A stretch of DNA of 57,883 bases, from IMG/VR virus record IMGVR_UViG_3300048631_000350, positions 1 to 57,883 of that record. The stretch is one strand, 5' to 3'. A program made the position numbers and the translations under genes. This stretch comes from a virus. Its lineage: Duplodnaviria; Caudoviricetes. The first letter of the stretch is position 1. Each line of letters starts with the position of its first letter. Positions 3,147 to 45,605 of this stretch are shown in pieces. The notes beneath the pieces are model-generated. The model saw only the letters and a list, made by a program, of their open reading frames with translations. It was not told the DNA's origin and did no database searches.

Positions 3147-3458
3147 ATGGAAGAATCTTTGAACCCGGACTTCTGGTGGAGTATTGGGCTTTCCGTAACG
3201 GTTGCTGTCGCGGCCGCTGCAAGAAAAAAGGTAAAGCACCCGGACGAATTCAGGCAGATGAGCTGGATGGATTGGTGTGGGCATTTCGCCCTGGCCGGGA
3301 TAGGCGTCATCTTCTTGGGCGGGTTTATCGGTATTGAGATGGTGATGGCAGCTGGCGTTTTCCTCGTCTGCGCCCTCTACCCGATAGCCATCCTTGGCCT
3401 CATCGGGCGCCTTGATCAGTTTATCGTCGAGGCCGCCAGGCTTTTCCGAAAGCGCTAA
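3147..3458 (+). CDS. Small multi-pass membrane protein (moron)
   Basis: Three hydrophobic segments; GAGG RBS; convergent with the late operon. Confidence 0.7.
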   Translation: MEESLNPDFWWSIGLSVTVAVAAAARKKVKHPDEFRQMSWMDWCGHFALAGIGVIFLGGFIGIEMVMAAGVFLVCALYPIAILGLIGRLDQFIVEAARLFRKR

Positions 3459-6400
3459 TCCTCACTCTCGTTATACCGTTTATTGAACTGGTCAATGGCC
3501 CGCTTCATCTGTTTCTCAATGTGCTGCAGGCGCTTGTCCGTTTCGGCGGCTGAAAGATCCATAGCCTCAACCCGGTCACGCTGGGCGCGCAGGAGCTTCA
3601 ATCGCTTCTCTACCGATTCCATGGTCCCTTTCAGGCGAATCTTGTCGCGGTACTCTTTGACGAATTCAACCCTCTCACGGCCGCGCAGATTATCGCGCTC
3701 GTCCGCCAGTTGGTTGATTTCGTCCCGGCGGTCATAGAACTTCGATTCATCATCAAAGCGCAACACCTTTCCGTGCAACTTCCGGTAGAACGGAATTTCC
3801 CGGTCCTCGAGCTCGACGCCTTGCGCCCATTTCAGTGCAGCGTTCGGGGCTCTGCTTGTAAAGAAGTTGTACGCACCGCCTCCGTAATAACCAACCAAAA
3901 AATGCATAACATCCGGGCTGAAGTCCATTGCTCCGCTGCGAAATGCGCTCCCGCCTGTCGCCTCGTTGATCGTCTCTGCCAGCGATTTGTACACTTCTGG
4001 CGTGCTGCGGAACGACAGCGCGCTGTCTGGTTTTGGAGTGGAGTAAGCCGGACTCCTTCGGTAAATTGGCCCTCCCATAAAGTTCTCGTTCATCATGATA
4101 CTCGCGCCAGGGCGCAAGATCGTAGGGGTGATGTTTTTGAAAAGGATGCCGTAGACTTCCTCGGATTGCTCGAAACCAATCGGCGAGAAGCTGCCCAGGC
4201 CTGCCAACACAATATTGCTGGCGATGTCGCCCGCCGGCTTATCGCTGGCCAGCATATGCTCCATGCCAGTACCGATCACCGGGAAAATGTTGTACCCATA
4301 CGGCAGCGGGATCGTCCAGTATTCCCCGGGCTCGCCGCCAACCAGGGATTTCATAATGACGATGTTCCGCTCTTTGACGTAATCGGGCACCTTGTCCCAC
4401 CAGTTCACGCCATCGTCATCATCGCCGGCCACCAGGCGATTCAGGGCTGACAGCATGAAGCCGCCAACCGCCATGCCGGCGGCAATCTTCTGAGCGGTGT
4501 TAAGGCGACGCCAGACCGGATCACCCTTCACGCCGTTCAGTCGGCCCAGAGTGCGCACGAAGTTGGCCGTACCCTGCACCGATGCGTTGGCGAACATATA
4601 CAGGGCGTTCATCATCGTGCCCAGCTCGCCCTTGCGGTTGAAGTTTACGGTCATGTTCTTGGCGAGGGAGGCGGCCTTGGCCCGGGGAATGCCAGCCTCG
4701 ATCGCATTCACGTAAGCGGACAGGCGAACGCCGTTCTCGATGGCCGAGTTGGTGTTTTCAACCCAGTCGGTAATGGCGTTGAAGCCGCGGCGCAGACCTC
4801 GCAGACTGAGCGTGCGCCCGCCCGCCATGGAAATCATGGTCTCCAGATCCTTCATCTGGCCATCCACGTCTTTCATGTCGAACCAGCCGGTCTTCGCACC
4901 ATCCTTCCTGAATTGGTCGAAATGCCGCTGCCAATCGCCAGCCCTTCCGTTCAGGGGCTTACCTTTCAGGCTGGCATTGATTGCCCGGATGGCTGTCGGC
5001 ACTGACTTCAGGGTTTTGGCGGCAATGCGCTCACCGCGAACCTTGCCATCGTCAGCAGACTGCTCGGAGGTCAGGTTGAGCAGCGCGGTCTGAATGTCCC
5101 GCGAGAAGTTAGAAATCACGAACTCGGGGTTATAGCTGGTGTTCAGCGAGGACATCAGCCGGGTAACCATGCTCAGCGAGCGCACCAACAGGCCGTTATT
5201 CTCAGGGCCGATGTTACGCATGGCATTCATCAACCGCTGATCCTGCAGTTTGATGTAGTAGGTTTCGCCGTTCACCTTCGTGGTGAAATACCGGTCACTC
5301 ATCATGGCCATGGGCACGGTCTGTTCTTCCACGCGCACCACGGTTTTCCCGGTCGTCGGATCAACCCGCTTGACCGCCTTGCGCTCTACCTCGGGATTTT
5401 CGGCCGTATAGACGCGCCAGTATCCATCGTTCGGATACGACTGCACCAGGCTCAGGAATGCATTGCCCACTTCGTTCTTACGCTGGCGCAGCACCGCCTC
5501 TGACAGATCGCTGATCGCGTTGGCGACGGGGGATGATGCCTTGCTCTTGCGGCCACCGGCCATCTGAGACTCTTTGCCAGCGATGGCGAAGCCCTTGCCG
5601 ATTTTTGGCATGGCCTCCTGCTTTTCGTCGGCAGCCCAGCCTTTGAGTGGCACGTAATGACGGTACGATGCTTCCCAGGCGCCCAGCGTTTCTTCGTCCA
5701 GTAGACCGGCGTCCTTCAGGATTTTCCGGCGACGCTCGAGCATTTGATAGACGGAATCCGCCAACTCCTGGAACTGGTCGAGCTTGCCAGACTTCTCAAC
5801 CTGATCGATAACCGCGGCTGCCTCGGCATTGGTCATGCCTGAGCCGCCATCCGGGAACTGATCGTTACGCTGGGCGATAACCCGGTTTCGCTCAGGAGCG
5901 TGCTTGGCGTACAGGAACTCGTCGAGCTGGGCCAGAGAAACGTCATATTCCGACATCTTCTCGGCCAGCGGCTGAATCATGTTTTCCTGAATCAGCCGAA
6001 TGTCGTTCTCCACTTTCCCGTGGAACAATTCTTCAGCCAGATAGGCATCGGCATCTTCTTGGATTTCGCCGAACCGGTCTGTGATGTTTTGCTGAACGCC
6101 TTTGAGGACGGTGAACTTGTCGGCAATCTTGCTGATCATCTTCCGCAGCAGCGTATCGCTGGGAGCGCCAAATGGTTCAGGGTCAAGATCAGGGACATCG
6201 TCGCGACTGAAGCGTGCGCCGGGAGGGACTACGCCTTGGCTGTCTTCCTGGCCATCATTTTGCTGATCATTGTCCGCGACGCTTGCCGCAGTGATCCGAT
6301 CTCGGATGGCGTCAAGTGATACGGCTTTTCTGAAATGCCCCGCTTCGCCTTGGGTGAGCGAGTCGATGCCGTAGCCGAATTCTTGGTGGAGGTATTCATC

Positions 6401-9400
6401 AAGCGGTTCTCCGTGTTTACGCCACAAATCCTGACGCATTTTCTCGGTAAGCGCAAGCTGTCCCTCTTTCTGGAATCCGGTCAGAGTCGTGGCGCCTACC
6501 ACGCTGCCGCCATTGGCCTCGATATGACCTCTCAAGCCGGCAAGAGTCCCGCCCATAGTCATGGTGTCGTCTACGACCAGGTAATCTTTACCGGCCTCAA
6601 CCGGGCCATCAAAAGCGGAATGGTTCGCCAAACGGTAGTCTGCGCCAGTTCCGGTTCGCTTCGCCCGAACCGATTGAACAATATCGCCGTAAACCTCAAG
6701 CCCAAGTTCATGGGCGATTTTTACAGCATAGGCTGCAGGAATCGCGTTGTGCCCGCTGGCTTCTTCGGCCATCACCGGCACAAGTGCTGGCTTGCGATCC
6801 CCGATCATTGCACGGATCCGCCCGATGGCTTCATCTGTCACCAGATCATCCACCAAATCCATTGCCGCATCGGCATCACCGGACTTTGCAGCCTTGTACT
6901 GAGGGTGCTTCTCAGCTGAACCAAGCGCAGAGGCAAAAGGCACCTTCGGGAAATCGGCAGGCCATGGCGCCCGATCACTGCCGGCCTTTCCGGCTTTGGA
7001 GAATTTTGACGCGACCACGGGCGCCCCCTCGGCGCTTGAATCTGTTTCGAATCCCCCATTCTCTACAGTGCGCCTGGCTCGACGCAACAGGTCCACAATA
7101 TCCTCGACCGTAAATTCAATGGTAAACCCGAGCTTGCGCAGCCCTCTGCGGATAATGGCAACAGCTCGCTCAACCAGTGTCTGCCCCCGGTTCTGTTCGG
7201 CCAGATGGGCAATCAGTTCCTCGGCGATTTCGTGGCGATGCTCTTTGTTGTTGGCATCAAAGGACCCATCCGGGAAGTACCGGCGGATAATGAAATCAGC
7301 GCGGGTTTTGCCGCCATGGGCAGCCCAGATCTGATTCAGTACTGGTTCCAGATCCTTACCAAGCATCTTGCGCAGGCCGTAATGGCCGACCACCTCATGC
7401 AGTAACACCTGCTCCATGCGCATCCGATCAGGAATGCGAGAGGCCAGGAGATACGCGGTGTCATTCCAGAAGACGCCGCGCATATTGTGCTCGGCGCCTT
7501 TGGCCAGAATGATTGCTTGCAGCGCTGGAGGAAACTGGCCGATGTCATTTCGAATAATTACATCTGGCGCGCCCTTCCAGCCCTTCATCAACTGGCCGCT
7601 GATCTGCCTGGCCTCATCAACCGTCAGGGCGTCGTCCATGAACCCTGGCGTTCGGCGGTAGCTTTCGCGGGATAGCATCGCCTGTTTCCCGGACTCATCG
7701 GTGCCTTGATCGTTGGCCGCAGAATCCTGCGCAACCGCCTTGCCCTTGGCCTCGGTAAGCGTCTCCCCGGATGCGTAATTATCGCCCTTGTCTCGGGCTG
7801 CATCATTGGCGAACACGGCGAACAACTTGGTTCTGATGCCGCCATTGGTAAACGACAGGTCGGCAATGATCTGGCCGTCATCAGAGCGCCATAACCGCTT
7901 GCCATCTTTCTTCCAGCTTAGGGATGGTGCGTCAGAGTTCTCGGTTTGCTCTGAGGCACGCCCTTCGCCCTGTCCCTCTCTGAACGCCGCTTCTCGGTCG
8001 GATTGCGGGAAGATGGCCTTCATTTCCGGGCCGTAAATCTCGCGTCCGGTCGCTTCTTTTACCCGTTTCATAACGCCAAGGTTGCGATTCCCTACGGCGC
8101 CATAGTCCACATCCGGATACTCTCGGCCAATCTGGCGCCACACTTCAGCAAGCGCTTTCCGGTCTTCGGTGGCGGCGCCCTGGTTAACGGGTGCGTTATC
8201 TGGCACTTTGGCGGCTGCTTTCTTCCGCGCCTTCGTGGCCGGGATCGCCTTCGCCTTCTCGGGCTGCAACGGCTTTTTCGTATCACCGTTTTTCAGCCAG
8301 TCTTTGAACTCGTCCATGGAAAGGCGTTTGACGGGGCCGACTTTCCAGCCCTTGTCGTAATTGTCGCGATACCCTTTCCTGGCCTCTGCCTGATTCTTGA
8401 AGCCAAGCAGCACCTTGTGTTCGTCAAAGGTGCCGTCAGCGTTCTGCTGATCAACAACGAACACCCGGTCACTTTCTGGGTCGGGGCCAATGAACACGTC
8501 CACGTGATCGCCATCTGCACCCTCGGTTCGGTTCAGGTAACCATAATGGTGGGCCATGGTGTTTTCCCACCGATTGCCATTCGGGTCAGTTCCGGACCGC
8601 GTGGAGCCTTTCGGGTTCTCAATGGCAATATCAAGCCCATGGACTTTAACGCGCCCCTTCTTGTAGTTCCCCGCCTCTTTCTGCGCCTCGGTTGGCTCAA
8701 TATTGGTATCAGACGCCGCCACATCCACCGCCTCGGCAGGAGTCAGTTCTTGCGGCTGCACAGCCTCCGGAGTTGCGACAACGGGCGCGGCCTCAGTCTG
8801 CATCTGGGGGGTAGATTCTGCGGTTTGCTGATTGATGCTGGCAAGATGCTCCGAGATCGGTACCGCCTCGTACTTCGACTCATTCAGGGCTGCAACCGTA
8901 TTCCGCTCAAATGTCTCAGCGATTACTTCCCCGGTTTCCTTATTCCGGATAACCCAGCTGGCCTGCTTTCCTGTCGCATCTGTGGATTCTGGAACAGCGG
9001 GCTCCTGAGCAGGCTCCGGCGCCACGCTCTCGTCAGCAACTACTTCCTCTGCAGTCGGGGCCGGCTCCGAAAGGAAATCCTCGGCACTTTGCACGACCTG
9101 AGAATCTGAGCCTTGCGCTTCCGGGGCTGTCGATTCCTGTTCGACAATCTCACCTTCCGGGCGCGTGCCATCCCTAAAGATATTGGTTTGATTATCGGCC
9201 CACTCAGGGCGCCCCGGGTAATCCGTCGAGGGAGCGTTGTCGTCAGATGGCAGTACATCACCTTCTGACTCGGATGCTGCAGCTGGCTCGTCTACCACCT
9301 CATCATTGAGGATGGGCGGCGCGACTTCATCCGGAGCGGCCTCACCCTGGCGACGATTACGGACCTCGTTCACGGCTGCACCAGCCGTGCCGGCGGTTGT

Positions 9401-10294
9401 GCCGTATACGCCACCGGCTACGGCGCCAGCAGCGCCACGGTCCAGCGCTTCCCATACCGACATAGCGGCATCGGTGCCCAGCTTTTCGCCCAGATATTCA
9501 ATGATGCCTTCTTGCAGAAATTCGGTGCCAGCCTCTTTCGCCCCAGCCTTCGCGCCCTCTTTGGCCATTTTACCAATGCCGGCTTTGAGCGCTTCCTTGC
9601 CCAGCGTTTCGGCGCCGGCCTGAGTAATCCCAGATGCACCCATTCGCTCCAGAATGGCAGAACCCAGCGCGAACGGAGCAGCCTCGGCCACATCCACCAG
9701 CTCGGCGCCTTCCTTGCCCTTATTGCGGGCGCGTTCCTCGCCGATCTCCCCGGACCGGGCCATGACATACCCGGGCAGGTTCGCCATGGCGGCAAACATA
9801 TCCGGGATGGACTTCACGCCCTGTTCGGCGCCATATGCCAGAACCTCGCCCCACGCACTACCGCTGAGCGCGCCACCTTCGCCGAACTCCTGCTTGACGC
9901 TTTCCCAGGTGTGTTCGGGCACGTACCCGGCGTCGAAGTTAGCCCAGTAATCGGCAGCGGCTTTCAGGGGCTCGTCGCCACCTTGCTCGGCTCGCCACCG
10001 CTGGTATTCCTTGGGGTTCTTGTAATCCGGGATCAAGCCATCTTCCCAGACCAGACCACCCAACGGGTATTCCTGTTCCGCCTGCTCTGCCATGGCATTA
10101 CCGGCTGTGAACAACCCGCCCAGCAGCTGGCCACCACGCTCAACCGCACCGCGCCCCATGTTCATGGATGGTGCAGGCTCTGTGGATGTGGTGGCAGGCT
10201 CAGGGTCTGACGCCGTCAAAAAGGCCTCGGCAGATCCGAGCTTTTGCACCGGCTCGTTATCCGTGGATTCTTCCAGGAAGGCTTCTGCGCGCAT
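3455..10294 (-). CDS. Large polyvalent virion/ejection protein (PPase-like, zincin metallopeptidase, PRTase and LPD38-like domains)
   Basis: GNYKKG...IENPKGS...HYGY...GADGDHVDVF (PPase-like); HEVVGHYG (zincin); VVDDTMTMGGTL (PRPP-binding loop); C-terminal IPLPYGYN...NENFMGGPI...SPDVMHFLV (LPD38-like); last gene of the late operon. Confidence 0.85.
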   Translation of the reverse strand: MRAEAFLEESTDNEPVQKLGSAEAFLTASDPEPATTSTEPAPSMNMGRGAVERGGQLLGGLFTAGNAMAEQAEQEYPLGGLVWEDGLIPDYKNPKEYQRWRAEQGGDEPLKAAADYWANFDAGYVPEHTWESVKQEFGEGGALSGSAWGEVLAYGAEQGVKSIPDMFAAMANLPGYVMARSGEIGEERARNKGKEGAELVDVAEAAPFALGSAILERMGASGITQAGAETLGKEALKAGIGKMAKEGAKAGAKEAGTEFLQEGIIEYLGEKLGTDAAMSVWEALDRGAAGAVAGGVYGTTAGTAGAAVNEVRNRRQGEAAPDEVAPPILNDEVVDEPAAASESEGDVLPSDDNAPSTDYPGRPEWADNQTNIFRDGTRPEGEIVEQESTAPEAQGSDSQVVQSAEDFLSEPAPTAEEVVADESVAPEPAQEPAVPESTDATGKQASWVIRNKETGEVIAETFERNTVAALNESKYEAVPISEHLASINQQTAESTPQMQTEAAPVVATPEAVQPQELTPAEAVDVAASDTNIEPTEAQKEAGNYKKGRVKVHGLDIAIENPKGSTRSGTDPNGNRWENTMAHHYGYLNRTEGADGDHVDVFIGPDPESDRVFVVDQQNADGTFDEHKVLLGFKNQAEARKGYRDNYDKGWKVGPVKRLSMDEFKDWLKNGDTKKPLQPEKAKAIPATKARKKAAAKVPDNAPVNQGAATEDRKALAEVWRQIGREYPDVDYGAVGNRNLGVMKRVKEATGREIYGPEMKAIFPQSDREAAFREGQGEGRASEQTENSDAPSLSWKKDGKRLWRSDDGQIIADLSFTNGGIRTKLFAVFANDAARDKGDNYASGETLTEAKGKAVAQDSAANDQGTDESGKQAMLSRESYRRTPGFMDDALTVDEARQISGQLMKGWKGAPDVIIRNDIGQFPPALQAIILAKGAEHNMRGVFWNDTAYLLASRIPDRMRMEQVLLHEVVGHYGLRKMLGKDLEPVLNQIWAAHGGKTRADFIIRRYFPDGSFDANNKEHRHEIAEELIAHLAEQNRGQTLVERAVAIIRRGLRKLGFTIEFTVEDIVDLLRRARRTVENGGFETDSSAEGAPVVASKFSKAGKAGSDRAPWPADFPKVPFASALGSAEKHPQYKAAKSGDADAAMDLVDDLVTDEAIGRIRAMIGDRKPALVPVMAEEASGHNAIPAAYAVKIAHELGLEVYGDIVQSVRAKRTGTGADYRLANHSAFDGPVEAGKDYLVVDDTMTMGGTLAGLRGHIEANGGSVVGATTLTGFQKEGQLALTEKMRQDLWRKHGEPLDEYLHQEFGYGIDSLTQGEAGHFRKAVSLDAIRDRITAASVADNDQQNDGQEDSQGVVPPGARFSRDDVPDLDPEPFGAPSDTLLRKMISKIADKFTVLKGVQQNITDRFGEIQEDADAYLAEELFHGKVENDIRLIQENMIQPLAEKMSEYDVSLAQLDEFLYAKHAPERNRVIAQRNDQFPDGGSGMTNAEAAAVIDQVEKSGKLDQFQELADSVYQMLERRRKILKDAGLLDEETLGAWEASYRHYVPLKGWAADEKQEAMPKIGKGFAIAGKESQMAGGRKSKASSPVANAISDLSEAVLRQRKNEVGNAFLSLVQSYPNDGYWRVYTAENPEVERKAVKRVDPTTGKTVVRVEEQTVPMAMMSDRYFTTKVNGETYYIKLQDQRLMNAMRNIGPENNGLLVRSLSMVTRLMSSLNTSYNPEFVISNFSRDIQTALLNLTSEQSADDGKVRGERIAAKTLKSVPTAIRAINASLKGKPLNGRAGDWQRHFDQFRKDGAKTGWFDMKDVDGQMKDLETMISMAGGRTLSLRGLRRGFNAITDWVENTNSAIENGVRLSAYVNAIEAGIPRAKAASLAKNMTVNFNRKGELGTMMNALYMFANASVQGTANFVRTLGRLNGVKGDPVWRRLNTAQKIAAGMAVGGFMLSALNRLVAGDDDDGVNWWDKVPDYVKERNIVIMKSLVGGEPGEYWTIPLPYGYNIFPVIGTGMEHMLASDKPAGDIASNIVLAGLGSFSPIGFEQSEEVYGILFKNITPTILRPGASIMMNENFMGGPIYRRSPAYSTPKPDSALSFRSTPEVYKSLAETINEATGGSAFRSGAMDFSPDVMHFLVGYYGGGAYNFFTSRAPNAALKWAQGVELEDREIPFYRKLHGKVLRFDDESKFYDRRDEINQLADERDNLRGRERVEFVKEYRDKIRLKGTMESVEKRLKLLRAQRDRVEAMDLSAAETDKRLQHIEKQMKRAIDQFNKRYNESED

Positions 10295-39106: not shown

Positions 39107-40056
39107 GCCGCACCTCCCGGCCACCCATCAGGACAATAACCGCCGTGAGCCCGCTCATACTTGCCGTAACCGTCCACGCGGATCTCCCCTGCCTCTCTCA
39201 TCCGCTTGAGGATGCCCATGGTTCTCAGGTCGTCCATGCCGATGATCTTGGCCAGCTCTTTGCGGTACAGCGCCTTGACCGACAGCGCCGTTAGAATTTT
39301 TTCTTCAGGTGTCATCACTGATTCCTCCACTTACATCCAGCGCACCCCTCGTCAGACGCCCTCTCGCTGTATCCACAGCCCATCTTTTTCCAGGGGGTCT
39401 GCACCATAACCATCCTCGGCTTGCCGTCCTCCCAGCCGTCCTGCGCAGGGTATGAGCCAAACTTATCGGTAGCGGGTCGGTTTATGCAGTCGTGCTTATG
39501 ATCTACTGCGTTCATTGGCCACCCCCACAAACAAACGGCGCACTCTGAGTCACACGCTTCTCTGGCTGGTGCCAGGTGTCCCGGCTCTTGGGCTCAAGCT
39601 CAAGGCGATAGCGGCCAGAGGTGCAGGCAAAGGCGCCACCCTGGTCCCGGTGGAGCTTGCTGCCGAATTGGCTGGTTTCGATGGGCAGGCCGCGCTGGCA
39701 TCCGTCGCATTGGTTGGTCACCACCGATCCTCCTCCTCGCTTTCTTTCTCTCCCGGCGGCTCTCGCAGCATCCCCAGATCAAACAAGATCCCGAACACGT
39801 CACGAGCCTTGTAGCTGCCATCAAACTTTTGGGTAAGCTGGTCAGCCATATCAACCAGCCGTTCCCGCTCTTTATGGTTGAATGGCTTGAGGTAGCCGGG
39901 CTGAACGCCGGTGTATTGCGGGGCTGCATCGTGCTGCTCAACAACAATTTCATCGTTGTAGTAAGCAACCACGGTGACCTTGTACGCGTCCTCGCCTATG
40001 ACGTAGTCGCACACTGTCCCTACTGGCGGGTTTCCGTTGCCATACCAAGGCTTCAT
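39103..40056 (-). CDS. Cluster of four small coupled hypothetical ORFs (about 39103-39315, 39315-39515, 39512-39724, 39718-40056)
   Basis: Tightly overlapping minus-strand ORFs of the nin region; individual starts approximate. Confidence 0.5.
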
Positions 40057-40361
40057 AGCGATATCTCCATCTGTGATTCGGATTTCCTCGCAGCTGCATT
40101 AGCTCTGCGCATCTTGGCGTCATGGCGGTTATGGCACCGCTGGCATAGAGCGGCGAGATTCAACAGGCTTGCCGCTTCCGGCCGATGGTCGAACACATGC
40201 GCTGTCGTTAGCACCACCTTGCTCCCGGTTACAGGGTGCGGCTCATGGTTCTTTGCGCCGCACCATTCGCAACGGTTCCGGGCACGGAAGAAGCGCACGA
40301 ACCGACTCCGCAACTTCCAGTCCTTGGGGTATCTGGCTTTCATCTCTGGTCGAATAGGCAT
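40053..40361 (-). CDS. HNH-like protein
   Basis: RCEWCG...LTTAH..DH...NLAALCQRCH. Confidence 0.75.
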   Translation of the reverse strand: MPIRPEMKARYPKDWKLRSRFVRFFRARNRCEWCGAKNHEPHPVTGSKVVLTTAHVFDHRPEAASLLNLAALCQRCHNRHDAKMRRANAAARKSESQMEISL

Positions 40362-40660
40362 TACGCCGCCACCCCGCTCATCCATCCGTTCAACCGCTCT
40401 CTATTCAGCTCCACGCGAATCCACACCGGCACCCGCTTCAGCTCATACTTGTAGATGGTCGAGCCATCCAGTTGCTTGATGGGCTTGGCCGGTGGAATCT
40501 CGCAGTGGTAGTCGTTGCGCAGCTCCCGGATTCGGGCGGTGACGGCGGTATCTGATGCCAGACCGGCCTTTCGGCGGATTTCGCCAGCGGTCATGGGGCC
40601 AGCCTTGTGCATGGCGCGCAGGACTTTTCCGAGCTTGGTTTCTTTGCTTGGGACTCTCAT
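40361..40660 (-). CDS. Winged-HTH protein
   Basis: MTAGEI...AVTARIRELR. Confidence 0.6.
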   Translation of the reverse strand: MRVPSKETKLGKVLRAMHKAGPMTAGEIRRKAGLASDTAVTARIRELRNDYHCEIPPAKPIKQLDGSTIYKYELKRVPVWIRVELNRERLNGWMSGVAA

Positions 40661-40839
40661 GCTGCAACCTCCTGCGCAAACCAGACAGTTGAATCAACTT
40701 CCAAATACACCTGGTGCGTCAGGATCAGGAACGCCAGGCATTCGCACAGCAGATCAAGATCACAGAGGATGATCGCGTGCAGTTGATCGATTGAACGCGG
40801 GCCTTGTTCGTGCAGGATGCAAAGGATTTCTTCGTTCAT
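40657..40839 (-). CDS. Hypothetical protein
   Basis: ATGA-coupled 60-aa ORF. Confidence 0.45.
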   Translation of the reverse strand: MNEEILCILHEQGPRSIDQLHAIILCDLDLLCECLAFLILTHQVYLEVDSTVWFAQEVAA

Positions 40840-41786
40840 GCTGCCGCCCTCCGAGACTTGATCAGGCAGTCGAGGTAGTCATCGCCGACCTGGCCACTGA
40901 CGTACACTGATACCTTGAAGCCTTCTCGGTGTAGCCGCTTGGCCAGCGCATAAGCCGCGGCCTGACCGGTAAAGCTGGCGTCGTTGTCGGCATAGATCGT
41001 TACCTGCTTAATACCCTCGGGCGGCTCGAACGTCTCGATACCGTGCGCACTGACGCAGGCCCAGCAGGGCAAGCCCTCCCCTTCCATGACAGCAAGCGCG
41101 TTTTCGATGCCCTCAGTTACGGCAATGTGCTCAGCCGCCGGAGCCAACCGGATTGCGCAGCCGTTGATGCTGCTGATGGGTGTCAGGATTTTCTTGCTGG
41201 CCCGAACGTCTGCTTTTTTGCCTTCAGGCGTCAGGTAGGTAATGTGGAACGATTCGGTTTTGCCTTCGGCGTTTTCAATCTTGGCAACCATCGCCGGAAA
41301 CTGTCCGATCAGGCGGGGCTCGTTGAACTCGTCGCGCTCGTAATACCCCAGGCTCGGGTGGAGTCGCAGCGCATAACCGGCAATGCCCTGAATGCCACGG
41401 CCTTTCAGGTACATGGTGACCGGATCGTGTTGCCCGATACGCTGCAAACGCTTGCCGACATTCTTCAGGGCGTTGCGCGGGTCTTTCCGGCGCTTTGGCT
41501 GCTCAGCCTGTATGTCAGTGTTCTGGCAGATTTCGTCGATGCGCTTGGCGATCTCCGAGAACTCTTGACCTGTCACCGCCTCGATCAGCTTGAAACCATC
41601 GCCGGAACCGCACTGGCCGCAGATATAGGAGCCGGTGCCTTCTTTGTTATCGAATCGGAACCTGTCGTTACCGCCGCAGGATGGGCACGGGCCGTGCTTG
41701 TTCACCAGGTGGCGAGCGTCAATACCGAACTCCGGCAGGATGGCGTGCCACTTTCCTTTTGCGACTTCGCGAGTGGGCAGCTTCAT
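40836..41786 (-). CDS. DNA primase (zinc ribbon plus TOPRIM)
   Basis: HGPCPSCGGNDRFRFD, EGIENAL and YADND motifs. Confidence 0.9.
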   Translation of the reverse strand: MKLPTREVAKGKWHAILPEFGIDARHLVNKHGPCPSCGGNDRFRFDNKEGTGSYICGQCGSGDGFKLIEAVTGQEFSEIAKRIDEICQNTDIQAEQPKRRKDPRNALKNVGKRLQRIGQHDPVTMYLKGRGIQGIAGYALRLHPSLGYYERDEFNEPRLIGQFPAMVAKIENAEGKTESFHITYLTPEGKKADVRASKKILTPISSINGCAIRLAPAAEHIAVTEGIENALAVMEGEGLPCWACVSAHGIETFEPPEGIKQVTIYADNDASFTGQAAAYALAKRLHREGFKVSVYVSGQVGDDYLDCLIKSRRAAA

Positions 41787-43285
41787 GCGGCAGCCCTCCC
41801 TGCTTCACGGCGTTTGGCTGCCTTGATGTTCAGATGCTTCACCACGTTCAGCGTGTTCTGTGATGGTTTTGCGGGCTCAATTTGTTTGGTATTCCGTGGC
41901 GCCTTTCCGGCGTACTCCTTGCACTTATGAAAGGCCCAGCCCTGGTTGTAGCCCTTGCTCAAGGCGTAACCCTTCAGCTCGGCATACAGGCTGGCCAATT
42001 CCTCCGTGCTCCACTTCTCTTTCGGCGCGTTGTCCTTGGTGATTTCGTACAACTCTCCTTCGACAACCTCGACGTCCTGACGAACTTCAGGCTTGAACCC
42101 GCAGGCCGGGCAAACGTGTTTCGTGCTCACGTGGCCGCAGCTGGCGCACGGCTTTTCAACAGGGTCTTTCTTGTCCCGCTCTTTACGGTCAAGGTTGCGA
42201 CTGCTTTCGCCGTCGTGCAGCTCCTGGGGCAGCGGGGAATCTGGCAGGCCGTTGCGCAGGCAGTTGCCGGCGTGGTCAATGATGATGCAGTCGCTTTTGC
42301 CTTCAGCGGTGCGTAGGCCGCGGCCAATCATCTGAATGTGAAGCATCAGCGATTTGGTCGGCCTGGCCAGAACAACGCAAGCGGTTTCCGGTGCATCAAA
42401 GCCTTTGGTCAGTACCGCTACATTGCACAGAACCTTGATCTCGCCGCGACGGAAGGCGTTGATAGTTTCTGTGCGCCCTTCCTTGTCGGTGTCGTAGCCG
42501 TCGATGTGCGCGGCGGCAATACCCACCTGGCGGAACCGGTCACACAAGGCGCGGGAGTGCGCTACATTGGCCCCGAAGACGATGGTTTGACGACCTTCTG
42601 CAAGCTTGAGCCACTGCTCAATTACGTCGCCCATCAGTCCGTTTTCGCCCATGACATCTGCAACCGCGTCCGCATCCCAGTCGCCGGATGAATTGGTTTT
42701 CACGCCCTTCAGCTCTGGAATGTTTGGCGCGTAGCAGCGGGCCCGGCAAAGGTAGCCGGCGTCCATCAGGTCTCCCGTGGTGATGGTGACAACCAGGCGG
42801 TCAAAGATTTTGCCGAGACCCTTGCGGAAAGGCGTGGCACTGAGGCCGATCACTGGCACCCGCTTCTCCTTACACCACTGAATAATGTCCTCGTGCGCCT
42901 GATGCAGAACGTGTGCCTCGTCGATGATCAGCAGGTCGGGGCGAATTTCGTCCGGCATCTGACGCCAGCGCCGGCCTAGTGTCTGAATCGTGGCCACCTG
43001 AACCGGGGCTGCGTAGTTGGTCATGATGTGGTCGCCCTGGATAACGCCTACCCACATGCCGTCATCCATGAACCGCTTGGCGGCCTGATCAACCAGCTCC
43101 AGCGAATCCACAATGAAGAATGCCTTTTTGCCCTTGGCGCATGCGCCCTGCTTGATAGCCGAAGCGATTGTGGTCTTGCCCGATCCGGTGGGAGCCATAA
43201 GCATTTGAGCCATTGCGCCTGAACGTATGCCCTGGCGTAGCTCGCTCAAGGCTTGTGCTTGGTACTGTCGTAGCTGCTGTGCCAT
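41783..43285 (-). CDS. Superfamily 2 DEAH helicase with C-terminal zinc finger
   Basis: LRQYQ, PTGSGKT, DEAH, SATP and QMIGRGLR motifs. Confidence 0.93.
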   Translation of the reverse strand: MAQQLRQYQAQALSELRQGIRSGAMAQMLMAPTGSGKTTIASAIKQGACAKGKKAFFIVDSLELVDQAAKRFMDDGMWVGVIQGDHIMTNYAAPVQVATIQTLGRRWRQMPDEIRPDLLIIDEAHVLHQAHEDIIQWCKEKRVPVIGLSATPFRKGLGKIFDRLVVTITTGDLMDAGYLCRARCYAPNIPELKGVKTNSSGDWDADAVADVMGENGLMGDVIEQWLKLAEGRQTIVFGANVAHSRALCDRFRQVGIAAAHIDGYDTDKEGRTETINAFRRGEIKVLCNVAVLTKGFDAPETACVVLARPTKSLMLHIQMIGRGLRTAEGKSDCIIIDHAGNCLRNGLPDSPLPQELHDGESSRNLDRKERDKKDPVEKPCASCGHVSTKHVCPACGFKPEVRQDVEVVEGELYEITKDNAPKEKWSTEELASLYAELKGYALSKGYNQGWAFHKCKEYAGKAPRNTKQIEPAKPSQNTLNVVKHLNIKAAKRREAGRAAA

Positions 43286-44149
43286 AATTACCTCGTCACT
43301 TGGAGCCCGATCTGTTGCCTCGCCAAAGGTGGATCGGGCTTTTTTGTGTCTGGCGATCACTGGTCGTCGGTCGGCAAACTCTCGATCAGTGGTCGCCCCT
43401 TCCAGGTCAGAGGGCTCGCGTGTGCGGTTGTACCCTCTAACTCTGAGTTACCTTCTGCACTCCCTGACCATCTACTTCCTGGTAGGGGCGGATACATCTT
43501 CCCTATGCCCATGCGCTACGCAGGGTTGAGAATTTTCACCAGAGCGCCTTGCCGGCGGTGATGGCTCAGGTTTAACGCAGTTCCTGAACTTGGCAGGGAT
43601 TCACCAGATGCGCCTGGTATCCGCCGGGGCCTGCCAACAGCGTGTATCCGCGCTGCCCTCCCTCCCCTGCCGCTTCGCGGTTCTTCTAGCGGCTTAACTG
43701 TCATGACACTGGCCGAACAGAGTAATCGACCGATAAACCAGTGCCGGCGCTTGCGGCGGTTGCTCGGAGTAACCGCAGGCCCTCTCTAGCTTCGGGCGCA
43801 AGCTGTGTTCGTCAGGCCAGTTTTCCGCCAATGGCCCAGGGCGACTGCAATTGTCATTGCTTGATGGGTGGACGGAATCAAACCGCCTCTACCGCATCTG
43901 AAAACGCTCTGCCCGGTAGCTAACCGGTCTGCTGCGCGCTTACTCCACCATGAAGCAGTCAGAGCGCTTTCAGATGAGCTACTTGCGGTAGCTACTCAGC
44001 ACAACCCCCGGGGCGGTGGATATCGCTGTCAAGACCTTCGGTGTTGTGCTGCTGTCGTTATCTATGGGCCGGACCCGAACCCGGCTTGCATTACACTCGA
44101 CACTACAAGCTGGCCGATGCCTTCCACTAATCGCGCCTCCGGCTGGCGC
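43286..44149 (-). ncRNA. Long structured non-coding region (candidate ncRNA or origin)
   Basis: No convincing coupled ORF; ten or more stems, including a 17-bp stem (43895-43911/43960-43976) that is complete only on the minus strand through a G.U pair. Confidence 0.5.
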
Positions 44150-44338
44150 TCAGTCCCGATTAGTCCCTCTTAGGGACGCAACCGCCTTACGGATAGCCTC
44201 TGCTGGATTAACCCCCTCGTTCTGGCACTGCTGGATAAATTGCGCGGCTAGTCGCTCTTCAATGTCTTCCAGGGACTCACCGTCCCTATGAGCCTCTACC
44301 AGCTCCCGCACCTCTTCGTTGGTGTACGAAACGTTCAT
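44150..44338 (-). CDS. Hypothetical protein
   Basis: 62-aa ORF in the pR operon. Confidence 0.55.
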   Translation of the reverse strand: MNVSYTNEEVRELVEAHRDGESLEDIEERLAAQFIQQCQNEGVNPAEAIRKAVASLRGTNRD

Positions 44339-44367
44339 TCACCCACCTTCAGGGACGATTCGGCTCT

Positions 44368-44604
44368 TCAGTTCTGGCTCTGGAGGCGAATAATGGATTT
44401 GATGACGGTCTCGCGGCCCTCATCGCGCATGCGCTCAAGTTGCAGCTTGGTCAGCAGCCGCAGGAGCACGTTGGGCTTCATGTCCATTTCCTTGGCGAGA
44501 TTCAGGATCTGGATATAAGTGTCTGCGTCATAGCGCGGGCGCATGTCGTACTCATGGCCGCCGGGCAGAATGCCAACCGCTTCTTTGATCAGGGCTTTAC
44601 TCAT
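44368..44604 (-). CDS. CII-position transcriptional regulator
   Basis: GGAGG RBS; directly after cro; RHH-like pattern. Confidence 0.5.
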   Translation of the reverse strand: MSKALIKEAVGILPGGHEYDMRPRYDADTYIQILNLAKEMDMKPNVLLRLLTKLQLERMRDEGRETVIKSIIRLQSQN

Positions 44605-44632
44605 GATTGAGCCTCCAACTTTTTCAACTGCA

Positions 44633-44815
44633 TCAGGCAGCCTTTACTTGCTTGGGCTCGGCTGTCAGAGCCCCGTCCGTGATCTTTTCAAGCTGAAGCT
44701 GTCGCAGCTCGGGAACTTGGTCGCCCCAGTCGTAAACCGCCTGAGTGCTGATACCGAGAACCCGGGCCAGCGCAGCAACAGATTTGAAGTGAGAGATTGC
44801 TTGTTGCTTGGTCAT
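44633..44815 (-). CDS. cro: Cro repressor
   Basis: MTKQQAISHF...LARVLGISTQAVYDWG..VP..RQ; divergent from cI. Confidence 0.88.
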   Translation of the reverse strand: MTKQQAISHFKSVAALARVLGISTQAVYDWGDQVPELRQLQLEKITDGALTAEPKQVKAA

Positions 44816-44840
44816 AACGGCCTCCGTTCTATATGCGCTA

Positions 44841-44892
44841 TACAAGCACACTTGTATTGCGAAGGCAAGCAAGGTTTCAAAGCAAACTTGTA
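44841..44892. promoter_or_regulatory. OR operators (CAAG-N4-CTTG)
   Basis: TACAAGCACACTTGTA (44841-44856) and AAAGCAAACTTG (44879-44890). Confidence 0.75.
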
Positions 44893-44903
44893 AAATTTCA
44901 CCT

Positions 44904-45605
44904 ATGACTACACAAGCCGCACGACTCAAACGATTAATGAACGCCAGGAACGTCCCCGAGCGACAGCAGCGGAGACAACTGGAGAAAGTCACCGGGGCAA
45001 CTTATGAGGCCGTCCGACAATGGTTCGCTAATGACGCCGACAACATTAAGTCCGAATACCTGAACAAGATTGCTAAGACCTACAGCTGCCAGCTTGAGTG
45101 GCTTGTAAGCGGATCGGGGCGAATGGATAGTGGTGATCGGTACGGCAATGGAAGAGAGGTCAACCCCGATTCTCGCAAACTACCCGTGTTAGACTACATA
45201 CAGGCTGGCAACCCAAAACCAGTGGTAGAGAGCTACCAACCTGGCGCGGGTATGTCTGAAATATCTGTGGATAGTGAGCTGGAGCAGGAGTTAAGCATGG
45301 AGTCGTTTGCCCTTGTTGTGAAGGGTAATTCCATGGCGCCAGAGTACAAGGAAGGCGACATTGTTGTTGTAGATCCGAGCGTTAAGCCGTGGCCAGGGGA
45401 TGTGGTGGTTGCAATGCTCGACTCGGAACATGAGGCGACAATAAAAAAATATCGGTCACGAGGGAATGACGAGACCGGGCACCATGTTTTTGAGTTGGTA
45501 CCACTGAACGAGGACTATCACGTAATAACGGTTTCTTCGAGCAACCCCGGGCACATAGTCGGCACGGTGGTTGAGCACAGAAGGAATCTCCGCCGAAGGC
45601 GATAA
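44904..45605 (+). CDS. cI: CI-like repressor with S24 autopeptidase domain
   Basis: N-terminal HTH; QAG cleavage site; GNSM serine and TIKK lysine. Confidence 0.92.
   Translation: MTTQAARLKRLMNARNVPERQQRRQLEKVTGATYEAVRQWFANDADNIKSEYLNKIAKTYSCQLEWLVSGSGRMDSGDRYGNGREVNPDSRKLPVLDYIQAGNPKPVVESYQPGAGMSEISVDSELEQELSMESFALVVKGNSMAPEYKEGDIVVVDPSVKPWPGDVVVAMLDSEHEATIKKYRSRGNDETGHHVFELVPLNEDYHVITVSSSNPGHIVGTVVEHRRNLRRRR

Follow-up and report, generated by a model that had tools for sequence, protein, structure and literature searches.

The stretch of DNA analysed here is the virus record IMGVR_UViG_3300048631_000350 (Duplodnaviria; Caudoviricetes), a 57.9-kb sequence (57,883 nucleotides) that we call, at its full length, the window, and our subject is a gap of 864 nucleotides (nt; positions 43286-44149) inside its early minus-strand operon, which runs in the order cro, two small open reading frames (ORFs), gap, helicase and primase (Table 1). 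As the window helicase is 88-89% identical to Marinobacter prophage helicases, the host is probably Marinobacter. Judged by comparison with related loci (numbered L below), the gap is the untranslated folded middle of this operon and comprises two independent, horizontally exchanged structured-RNA modules: module A, which ends in a small pseudoknot, and module B, which lies between module A and the helicase. An earlier note on this DNA, made from the letters alone, had proposed a single undescribed structured RNA of about 860 nt; the structured RNA has been borne out, the single RNA has given way to two separately exchanged modules, and their conserved core, the small pseudoknot, had been missed.

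Table 1. Features of the gap, of the genes around it and of two pseudoknot loci in cultured phages (positions in the window unless a locus is named)
Feature	Positions	Strand	Basis or remark
CI-like repressor	44808-45605	+	PHROG repressor, 3.6e-41; opposite cro
Cro-like regulator, first gene of the minus-strand early operon	44633-44815	-	PHROG transcriptional regulator, 4.2e-19
Small ORF without known family	44368-44604	-	ORF list, family search
Acidic ORF of 62 amino acids (aa), stopping directly before module A	44150-44338	-	no Pfam or PHROG match
Module A, 5' domain: hairpins 44133-44149 and 44068-44085 ('GGTTCGGGTCC', T-loop-like), helix 44043-44051/43997-44005	44002-44149	-	
Module A, hairpin H0	43977-43993	-	predicted in 16/16 large-form sequences, with at least 8 different stem sequences
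Module A, long stem 43960-43976/43895-43911, enclosing variable apical hairpins 43929-43958 and 43913-43927	43895-43976	-	
Module A, connector: short GAUG...CAUC helix round T-loop-like hairpin 43871-43887, and small hairpin 43847-43860	43847-43894	-	
H-type pseudoknot, 3' end of module A	43811-43846	-	R1 covariance model, 52.1 bits
Pseudoknot P1, with loop 43830-43839	43840-43844/43825-43829	-	
Pseudoknot P2, loop bases with tail; A-rich linker 43820-43824	43832-43837/43814-43819	-	
Module B, second multi-helix RNA; core domain closed by G-tract 43656-43667 with C-rich 43484-43491	43440-43800	-	
3' extension of module B, with stem 43394-43406/43478-43490 reaching back in	43390-43439	-	inverted repeat I5, 13 nt, 92% complementary
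Hairpin with A6/T6 run beside the helicase ribosome-binding site, terminator-like on the plus strand	43305-43346	(.)	inverted repeat I16; kept in L004 and L007
Promoter-like site facing that hairpin, TTGGTA-18-CATAAT with TG	43259-43288	+	consensus match only; 1 site against 0.6 expected
SF2 DNA helicase, start probably ATG at 43285	41783-43285	-	PHROG DNA helicase, 5.5e-98; ResIII, DEAD and Helicase_C domains
Primase	40836-41786	-	Zn-ribbon, DUF7146 and Toprim_3 domains
HNH endonuclease gene just 3' of the primase region	40053-40385	-	PHROG, 2e-20
Pseudoknot alone, cultured Rhizobium phage RHph_Y65	L093 2501-2531	sense of flanking genes	between gp110 and gp111
Pseudoknot alone, cultured Streptomyces phage BillNye	L447 1500-1531	sense of flanking genes	4 nt past the stop of an Lsr2-like gene

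The stems, T-loop-like hairpins and G-tract listed in the earlier note are all present, among them the CAGCACAAC/GTTGTGCTG helix of the module A 5' domain, the 17-bp stem with its one G.U pair read on the minus strand (that is, the long stem of module A, which covaries in 16 sequences), the stem of the module B extension (recovered in an inverted repeat search) and the plus-strand hairpin, which spans 43305-43339 and is followed by T6. Energy alone does not set the structure of the gap above chance (folding-energy z of -1.92 on the minus and -2.43 on the plus strand for 43800-44149, and -2.31 on the minus strand for 43286-43806); comparison with relatives does. Of the checks that the note had named, an Rfam scan returned no family at the gathering score, and the search for covariation among relatives found it in both halves of the gap on the minus strand, which upholds the description as an undescribed structured RNA. 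A conserved translated ORF, which the note had named as evidence that would tell against an RNA, is absent: the longest ORFs are 62, 51 and 45 aa inside the gap on the minus strand and 101 and 100 aa overlapping it on the plus strand, no conserved reading frame of a protein-coding gene or pseudogene runs across the relatives (judged from alignments, with no protein-database search of the short frames), and the 1-, 2- and 4-nt insertions and deletions that, beside paired compensatory changes, separate relatives in the module B alignments exclude one.

Catalogues of known RNAs were equally silent. Rfam 15 at gathering score (riboswitches, C4, GOLLD, ROOL and ribozymes included) gave 0 matches in the window and in L026-L028, the sole match to the gap region at E<=10 being Pseudomon-1/ErsA on the plus strand (43242-43355, 32.9 bits against a cut-off of 50), which covers mostly the hairpin beside the helicase. 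ARAGORN detected no transfer RNA (tRNA) or transfer-messenger RNA genes, either in the window at its full length or in L025-L028 and L030, so that an attP-like tRNA 3' end was rejected; SRP-, Y-RNA- and cobalamin-like word likenesses, noted by eye, were dropped for want of an Rfam match. A blastn search with the whole 864-nt gap against 50,697 GenBank phage records returned no match.

Module A (approximately 44149-43811) is predicted to form a multi-helix RNA of approximately 330 nt and is common to 15 other phage or prophage loci, which together with the window give an alignment of 16 sequences of this large form. The family comprises phage RNAs of 160-330 nt that have the pseudoknot as their 3' end, in the order hairpin, long bulged stem with a variable tip, short helix round a variable hairpin, small hairpin and pseudoknot. 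From the 16 sequences RNAalifold predicts 16 pairs in the long stem, 8 of them compensatory, with 91.7% of cells pairing, and the covariation score of the whole structure is 0.292, against 0.166 +/- 0.012 after shuffling (0/500) and at most 0.144 after sliding. Hairpin H0 is weak in L086 (-2.9 kcal/mol), and only 70% of its cells pair on the MAFFT columns because the loops are misaligned there. Most of the 16 sequences also have, by eye, the GAUGCGG...CCGCAUC helix and small hairpin of the connector; the enclosed hairpin varies, and its T-loop-like look is seen in only some of the 16 and is not conserved. The 5' domain, of approximately 140 nt, is common to the window, L026 and L027, with changed letters in both helices (alignment, by eye), and is lacking in L032 and L276, in which the RNA begins at the next hairpin. 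When the search pattern CCTTCRCAGATGCGG was run on viral contigs to find relatives, it gave 115 matches, of which only L276 and L290 were true relatives and the remainder chance.

Module A comes after cro in three lambdoid contexts (the window, L010 and L448), beginning approximately 80 nt past the cro stop in L010 and after cro and two small ORFs in the window. In L448 (the same as L027), a circular replicon of 47 kb from the cultured strain Marinobacter sp. M3C, a PR-like site (3264-3292) and a YdaS/Cro gene (3300-3539) are followed by module A at approximately 3600-4035, so that it starts approximately 300 nt past the PR-like promoter, and then by an FtsK-gamma-like gene, RusA, an antirepressor and an O-type replication gene. 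On its 3' side the large form is followed by Ant anti-repressors (2), RusA (2), FtsK-gamma-like and RdgC-like genes, four small proteins without family and, in the window, the helicase. On its 5' side the same 62-aa ORF precedes it in the window, L032 and L276, with a homologue before the large RNA in L290 as well; L007 also has a homologue of this ORF, but other sequence comes after it. As a side observation, the protein that accompanies the large RNA in the window, L032 and L276/L290 is a possible partner.

Module B was aligned over approximately 360 nt in the window, L004, L007 (equal to the Marinobacter alexandrii LZ-8 prophage L011, which has module B only) and L006, effectively three independent sequences. 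From these, which served both to derive the structure and for the counting, RNAalifold predicts 81 pairs, 17 of them changed on both sides, with 96.2% of cells pairing; the 17 compensatory pairs compare with 4.3 +/- 1.7 after shuffling (0/500) and 1-3 after sliding. Many of the G.U pairs are possible on the minus strand only, the G-tract is invariant in 4/4 sequences and is predicted to close a multi-branch domain by pairing with the C-rich stretch, and several hairpins have fully changed stems in L006. The 3' extension is kept in L004 and L007 and not in L006. A search with the pattern ACCGCCGRCAAGGCGCT gave 105 distinct matches, which apart from contigs already known were chance matches in coding sequence and added no new module B members.

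That the modules are exchanged independently is shown by how similarity breaks off along the gap. In blastn comparisons with helicase-bearing relatives, the part from 43286 to approximately 43800 is common to L004 (94%) and L007 (approximately 82%, from 43722), and 43494-43801, a part of module B, to L006 (75%), and L007 has other sequence in place of 44149 to approximately 43805. That latter part recurs in Marinobacteraceae genomes and viral contigs beside quite different genes. L005, L008 and L010, whose helicases are 80-90% identical to that of the window, share no sequence with it upstream of the helicase and are without module B. As identity with L034 extends through the pseudoknot and stops immediately past it, and as a metatranscriptome contig matches the window over 43218-43806 and then diverges, we place the module border at the 3' edge of the pseudoknot. 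Contigs from four metatranscriptome runs lie over 42939-43806 and 44195-44619, although carry-over of DNA is possible; over module B they cover 43218-43806 (one run) and 43530-43716 (another run, a contig of 188 nt), with no strand or end information. Other material also occupies this position in relatives: between leader and helicase, the close helicase relatives L010 (2796-3488) and L008 (2268-2924) have, in place of module B, an HNH endonuclease gene and 460-970 nt of different non-coding sequence, and ORFs of 380 and 195 aa are inserted between module B and the helicase in L006 (1197-2923), the 380-aa protein resembling, by eye, a ParB-like nuclease domain joined to a DNA methyltransferase.

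The position of module B directly upstream of helicase and primase, where no initiator gene was recognised in Pfam and PHROG searches, brings in one of the two functions that the earlier note had proposed, an RNA-primed, ColE1-like origin, in which the G-tract transcript would form a persistent R-loop and prime replication near the helicase-primase pair. The invariant G-tract would suit such a role, as would the long non-coding stretch that also precedes this helicase family in PS-1 (approximately 610 nt), YA3 (approximately 470 nt), L006, L008 and L010. However, leaders are unrelated among helicases that are 80-90% identical (L005, L008 and L010), two genes separate module B from the helicase in L006, the G-tract is predicted to pair within the RNA, and module A also resides in the phage-plasmid L448, which has an O-type initiator. 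Marks of an iteron or DnaA-box origin are lacking as well, as the note had said of iterons: the gap holds only two-copy repeats of 9-19 nt (fewer than three direct repeats), no DnaA box with at most one mismatch within 43286-44149 and no AT-rich unwinding stretch, with a GC content of 0.57-0.61 throughout. We therefore regard an origin as improbable; the other proposed function, a put-like antiterminator, fits the position better and is weighed below.

The conserved core of module A is a 38-nt H-type pseudoknot with a P1 of 4-6 bp, a first loop of 1-2 nt, a P2 of 6-8 bp, one junction U and an A-rich linker. Used as a pattern, the stretch 43846-43811 (minus strand) matched 10 viral and 52 metagenome contigs with 53 distinct sequences, of which 35 have a complementary P1 of 3 bp or more enclosing an invariant 9-nt loop. 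The 18 without P1 were dropped as chance or coding before alignment A2; under R1 none of them exceeds 33 bits, whereas every member reaches 45 bits or more. Members were picked for having P1, which makes the percentage of paired P1 circular but not the variety of pair types: among 33 distinct members, pair 11-24 is UA in 15, CG in 14, AU in 3 and GC in 1, with 0 unpaired, and pair 9-26 is AU in 13 and CG in 13. For P2, viral contigs were scanned with three loop and three tail bases left free and the P1 threshold at 3 bp or more. Among the 95 distinct matches listed, 31 have P1 and all three P2 pairs, 8 have P1 only, 5 have P2 only and 51 have neither (odds ratio approximately 40; Fisher p = 1.2e-12), and the listed 31 comprise 14 loop/tail triplet types, with 11 G.U cells whose pairing holds on the sense strand alone. 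In RHph_Y65 a C-to-U change in the tail retains a G.U pair, BillNye has a U.G pair, and in many AT-rich variants P2 is a G-run paired to a C-run. On these counts, both helices of the predicted pseudoknot covary. The invariant A-rich linker and the first loop of 1-2 nt suggest a triple-helical, mechanically stable fold, by analogy with known structures. A start codon at the invariant AUG of the motif was considered and rejected, as only short, unrelated frames would follow from it and the window reads AUUG at that place.

Two readings of the motif bear directly on its fold and strand. The first is a signal at the level of DNA, such as a single-strand DNA structure or a recombination hot spot that drives the exchange of modules; mosaic breakpoints lie at the motif edge in three comparisons, and the motif is single-copy. 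However, the motif is invariably oriented with the genes on either side, its G.U pairs form in that orientation alone, covariation of a pseudoknot is hard to account for in duplex DNA, and no recombinase travels with the motif; we give this reading very little credence. The second is a minimal 38-nt aptamer of the preQ1-I riboswitch fold class, sensing a universal metabolite or ion. The H-type topology, the A-rich third loop, the invariant C, U and A at the helix junction and the broad host range would all agree with a ligand sensor, but only 1 nt lies between the helices, no expression platform is seen (the 3' strand of P2 varies and overlaps no Shine-Dalgarno sequence or terminator), the downstream genes are unrelated, and the pseudoknot alone (71-76 nt, from the window and RHph_Y65) matched no Rfam family, riboswitches included, even at E<=10. 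We consider ligand sensing highly unlikely.

Besides Marinobacter phages, the pseudoknot is found in Rhizobium and Streptomyces phages (that is, in phages of both Proteobacteria and Actinobacteria) and in many that are uncultured, and it is as a rule single. In the window the one copy is followed by a next match of only 10.6 bits, and one copy was found in each of the 5/5 whole records searched: RHph_Y65 (206 kb), BillNye (127 kb), a complete 50-kb contig and two partial contigs. L027 (= L448) has a second, degenerate copy of 34.9 bits approximately 110-150 nt downstream of the first; this copy (L027 1679-1722, L448 4144-4187) immediately precedes the ribosome-binding site of an ORF of 82 aa that includes an arginine-rich stretch. 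A pattern search of 401 genomes sampled from the order of G001, a sample that left out three family genomes holding the motif, gave 0/401, and E. coli genomes gave no match to one pseudoknot variant. Among plasmids the only true match was the Marinobacter sp. M3C replicon, four sphingomonad plasmid matches being rejected because they lie inside a dioxygenase gene.

In 44/49 distinct instances the end of a same-strand ORF lies upstream of the pseudoknot, which is on the sense strand of its neighbours. P1 starts 3-8 nt past the stop codon in 19/44, 11-25 nt past it in 17/44 and elsewhere in 8/44, and the distance to the next start codon is far more variable (11-193 nt, or no start found). What lies upstream varies widely: by eye, the genes encode lysin-like lipoproteins, proteins resembling Hsp20, capsid and SSB proteins, and large proteins of 870-890 aa, among others. 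A recoding signal (a slippery site or stop codon 5-9 nt upstream, with a long frame running on past the stop) is not indicated: the spacing fits in 19/44, but no shared slippery sequence was seen; in the 36 instances with a stop at most 25 nt away, the 0, -1 and +1 frames mostly end within tens of codons, with no shared domain-sized extension (by eye).

Such spacing fits the possibility that the pseudoknot is a 3'-end guard or insulator, in which a compact fold behind the terminating ribosome would block 3'-to-5' exonucleases or terminate leakily, and so stabilise and insulate the upstream message; in the large form it would cap a stable processed RNA, resembling the stem-loop half of the T4-type cassettes known as PeSLs. 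The suggested triple-helical fold, inferred from known structures, would favour such a role, and promoter-like sequences or T-runs follow the pseudoknot in several AT-rich phages (by eye). Mosaic junctions at its 3' edge are likewise as described for PeSLs, in the part of that work available to us (PMC2839356). Against a guard stand the one copy per genome, whereas terminators, stabilisers and PeSLs are many, and the absence of a T-run after the pseudoknot in the window and in most GC-rich members; in L078 and L187, moreover, the Shine-Dalgarno sequence of the next gene begins 1-2 nt past the pseudoknot, so that transcription must read through. A guard is in our judgement unlikely, although not negligible.

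The genes around the motif prompt a further reading. The large RNA is placed among early accessory genes (Ant, RusA and FtsK-gamma-like), as would be expected of a trans-acting accessory RNA, or 'RNA moron'; modules A and B would then be released from the early transcript by processing and target a factor of the host or of a defence system, perhaps as decoys. Consistent with this notion, the modules are mosaic and dispensable among close relatives, the single-copy element spans unrelated phages and host phyla, and the invariant loop nucleotides suggest a conserved binding partner; the 188-nt RNA-library contig that covers only 43530-43716 of module B is a weak further pointer. However, neither module was found to have a promoter or terminator of its own, and a free 38-nt RNA would require processing sites, of which none was identified. 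Nor do the loci resemble type III antitoxins, which are tandem repeats of a 34-45-nt pseudoknot beside an endoRNase toxin gene: all 10 viral and 52 metagenome loci have one pattern match each and no tandem array, the degenerate, off-pattern copy of L027 being the only second one, and their neighbours are ordinary phage genes. An RNA moron acting in trans seems to us a minority prospect of about the same standing as a guard.

The reading that we rank first, as a tentative proposal that we would not call probable, is a put-like action of module A in cis on elongation of the early transcript, with module B as a second leader element. Through its pseudoknot, module A would act during transcription on the elongation complex that made it and, like the put RNA of phage HK022, would let polymerases that start at a PR-type promoter continue through the replication genes and the early genes beyond them with no need of an N-type protein; the RNA would have as its partner some feature of RNA polymerase conserved in all bacteria, and module B would tune expression of the helicase. 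The ranking follows from the position of module A, which matches that of putR, and from the single copy, the indifference to neighbouring genes and the broad host range. A universal polymerase partner would explain the presence of the element in phages of both Gram-negative and Gram-positive hosts, and an element whose target is polymerase, not a single gene, would be expected to have differing genes downstream, as is seen here. Family searches (Pfam and PHROG) of early ORFs recognised none as N-like.

Several observations weigh against this proposal. No intrinsic terminator (a GC-rich hairpin with a U-run) lies on the minus strand within 43100-45100, and the 12 terminator-like sites of L448 are not clearly above the 7.1 +/- 2.9 of shuffled sequence. 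The folding z-scores are weak and similar on both strands, the RNA-library contigs are unstranded and none spans 43844-44111, and module B is known from four sequences, effectively three, from which its structure was also derived. The put RNA has no pseudoknot and an architecture unlike that of module A. In several AT-rich uncultured phages a promoter-like sequence lies 5-35 nt past the pseudoknot (by eye), in which case the element would end a transcription unit and not begin one, and in lytic phages the pseudoknot also sits behind late genes, for example capsid-like ones (by eye), where host-polymerase antitermination is not expected.

The edge of the gap at the helicase holds features of its own. 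Relatives align from approximately residue 39 of the longer helicase ORF, which makes 43285 the probable start. The hairpin beside its ribosome-binding site was missed by a simple terminator scan because its loop exceeds 8 nt; together with the promoter-like site it may delimit a candidate antisense RNA of approximately 50 nt opposite the helicase 5' untranslated region, in a position like that of lambda OOP. A stretch of 22-24 nt beside this hairpin (window 43341-43364) is 100% identical in two Marinobacteraceae genomes (L029 1501-1524 and L030 351-372), one copy sitting approximately 1 kb from a tRNA-Pro gene. Far from the gap, the late region of the window holds a very long ORF of 2279 aa (3455-10294, minus strand).

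Phage early operons tend to be interpreted as rows of small genes, yet here approximately 860 nt are given over to two conserved folded RNAs that are in none of the catalogues searched. As a short, single-copy element with very good support from covariation, common to phages of Proteobacteria and Actinobacteria, the pseudoknot probably acts on some feature of gene expression that all bacteria share. It is conceivable, if still short of an even prospect, that it is a universal single-copy phage RNA device read by bacterial RNA polymerase, the ribosome or a 3' exonuclease. On that reading it could, with similar reserve, represent a new class of protein-independent processive antitermination or a bacterial counterpart of exonuclease-resistant RNAs, and lambdoid early operons would carry the large RNAs and module B as exchangeable 'RNA morons'. 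A protein-free antiterminator or exonuclease block, if true, would provide a compact, portable part for the control of expression, and also a new marker for annotating phage transcription units; the cultured carriers (RHph_Y65, BillNye and the Marinobacter sp. M3C replicon) make the question open to bench testing.

Among known systems, the EAR element of Bacillales is a processive antitermination RNA with a pseudoknot that lies in single copy between genes inside an operon. Module A is similar as an intra-operon pseudoknot RNA and differs from EAR in host group and architecture; Rfam 15, which we take to include EAR, holds no family that the window RNA matched. In ColE1 the replication region is preceded by the pre-primer RNA II, a long, structured and G-run-bearing transcript whose persistent RNA-DNA hybrid is processed by RNase H, and the gap shares with it a G-run transcript and a nearby candidate for a short antisense RNA. 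It differs in that this candidate lies at the helicase 5' untranslated region and not opposite the 5' end of the structured RNA, and in that a pre-primer would be conserved with its replication proteins, whereas L005, L008 and L010 share no leader with the window. Compact H-type pseudoknots with a P1 of approximately 5 bp, a P2 of 6-8 bp and an A-rich last loop are known from the T-even gene 32 leader and from luteovirus frameshift sites. The likeness to these is one of shape only (a first loop of 1-2 nt and at most one junction base): the phage motif has no link to an SSB gene, no slippery site or extended frame, and other conserved letters. The gene 32 leader pseudoknot is also mentioned in the accessible part of a study that mined 8,495 candidate structured RNAs from intergenic regions of IMG/VR phages (PMC10690425); this catalogue draws on a collection in which our motif is frequent and may contain it, its motif lists being supplementary.

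PeSLs, as described in the accessible part of their report, are intergenic stem-loops, often with a G-run...C-run stem, that lie just past a stop codon, beside an early promoter and at points of modular shuffling; each genome has many of them, a sigma-70 promoter is part of their definition, they have been shown to terminate, and the paper makes no mention of a pseudoknot (PMC2839356). The pseudoknot differs from them in being single-copy and having invariant loop letters, with a promoter partner only in some AT-rich members (by eye). In full-text searches of the literature, among them one on put and antitermination, we found no description of the motif, nor does it figure in the accessible parts of the PeSL paper (PMC2839356), the put structure paper (PMC9378689) or a 2026 preprint on the mining of non-coding sequence.

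The closest comparison is with putL and putR of HK022, which are likewise cis-acting structured RNAs in the early operon of a lambdoid phage without an N-type protein, in one or two copies per genome; put RNA binds the beta' zinc-binding domain of the polymerase and suppresses termination without protein factors. According to the part of the structural report available, putR lies approximately 270 nt past the PR start, and put RNA is approximately 70 nt long, with two stem-loops in a V shape, no pseudoknot and a short RNA triplex (PMC9378689). Module A has no evident sequence likeness to put and departs from its fold, with 160-330 nt, at least five helices and a terminal pseudoknot, and the pseudoknot alone, unlike put, also occurs in lytic phages behind late genes. 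In placement the two agree: in L448, L010 and the window, module A is on the transcribed strand and follows the early promoter at a short distance, starting approximately 300 nt past the PR-like promoter in L448 and directly after cro in L010, much as putR does. From the comparisons of sequence made here, modules A and B are conserved non-coding RNA structures of the sense strand, in no family tested, and kin to the structured leader and intergenic RNAs of phage operons.

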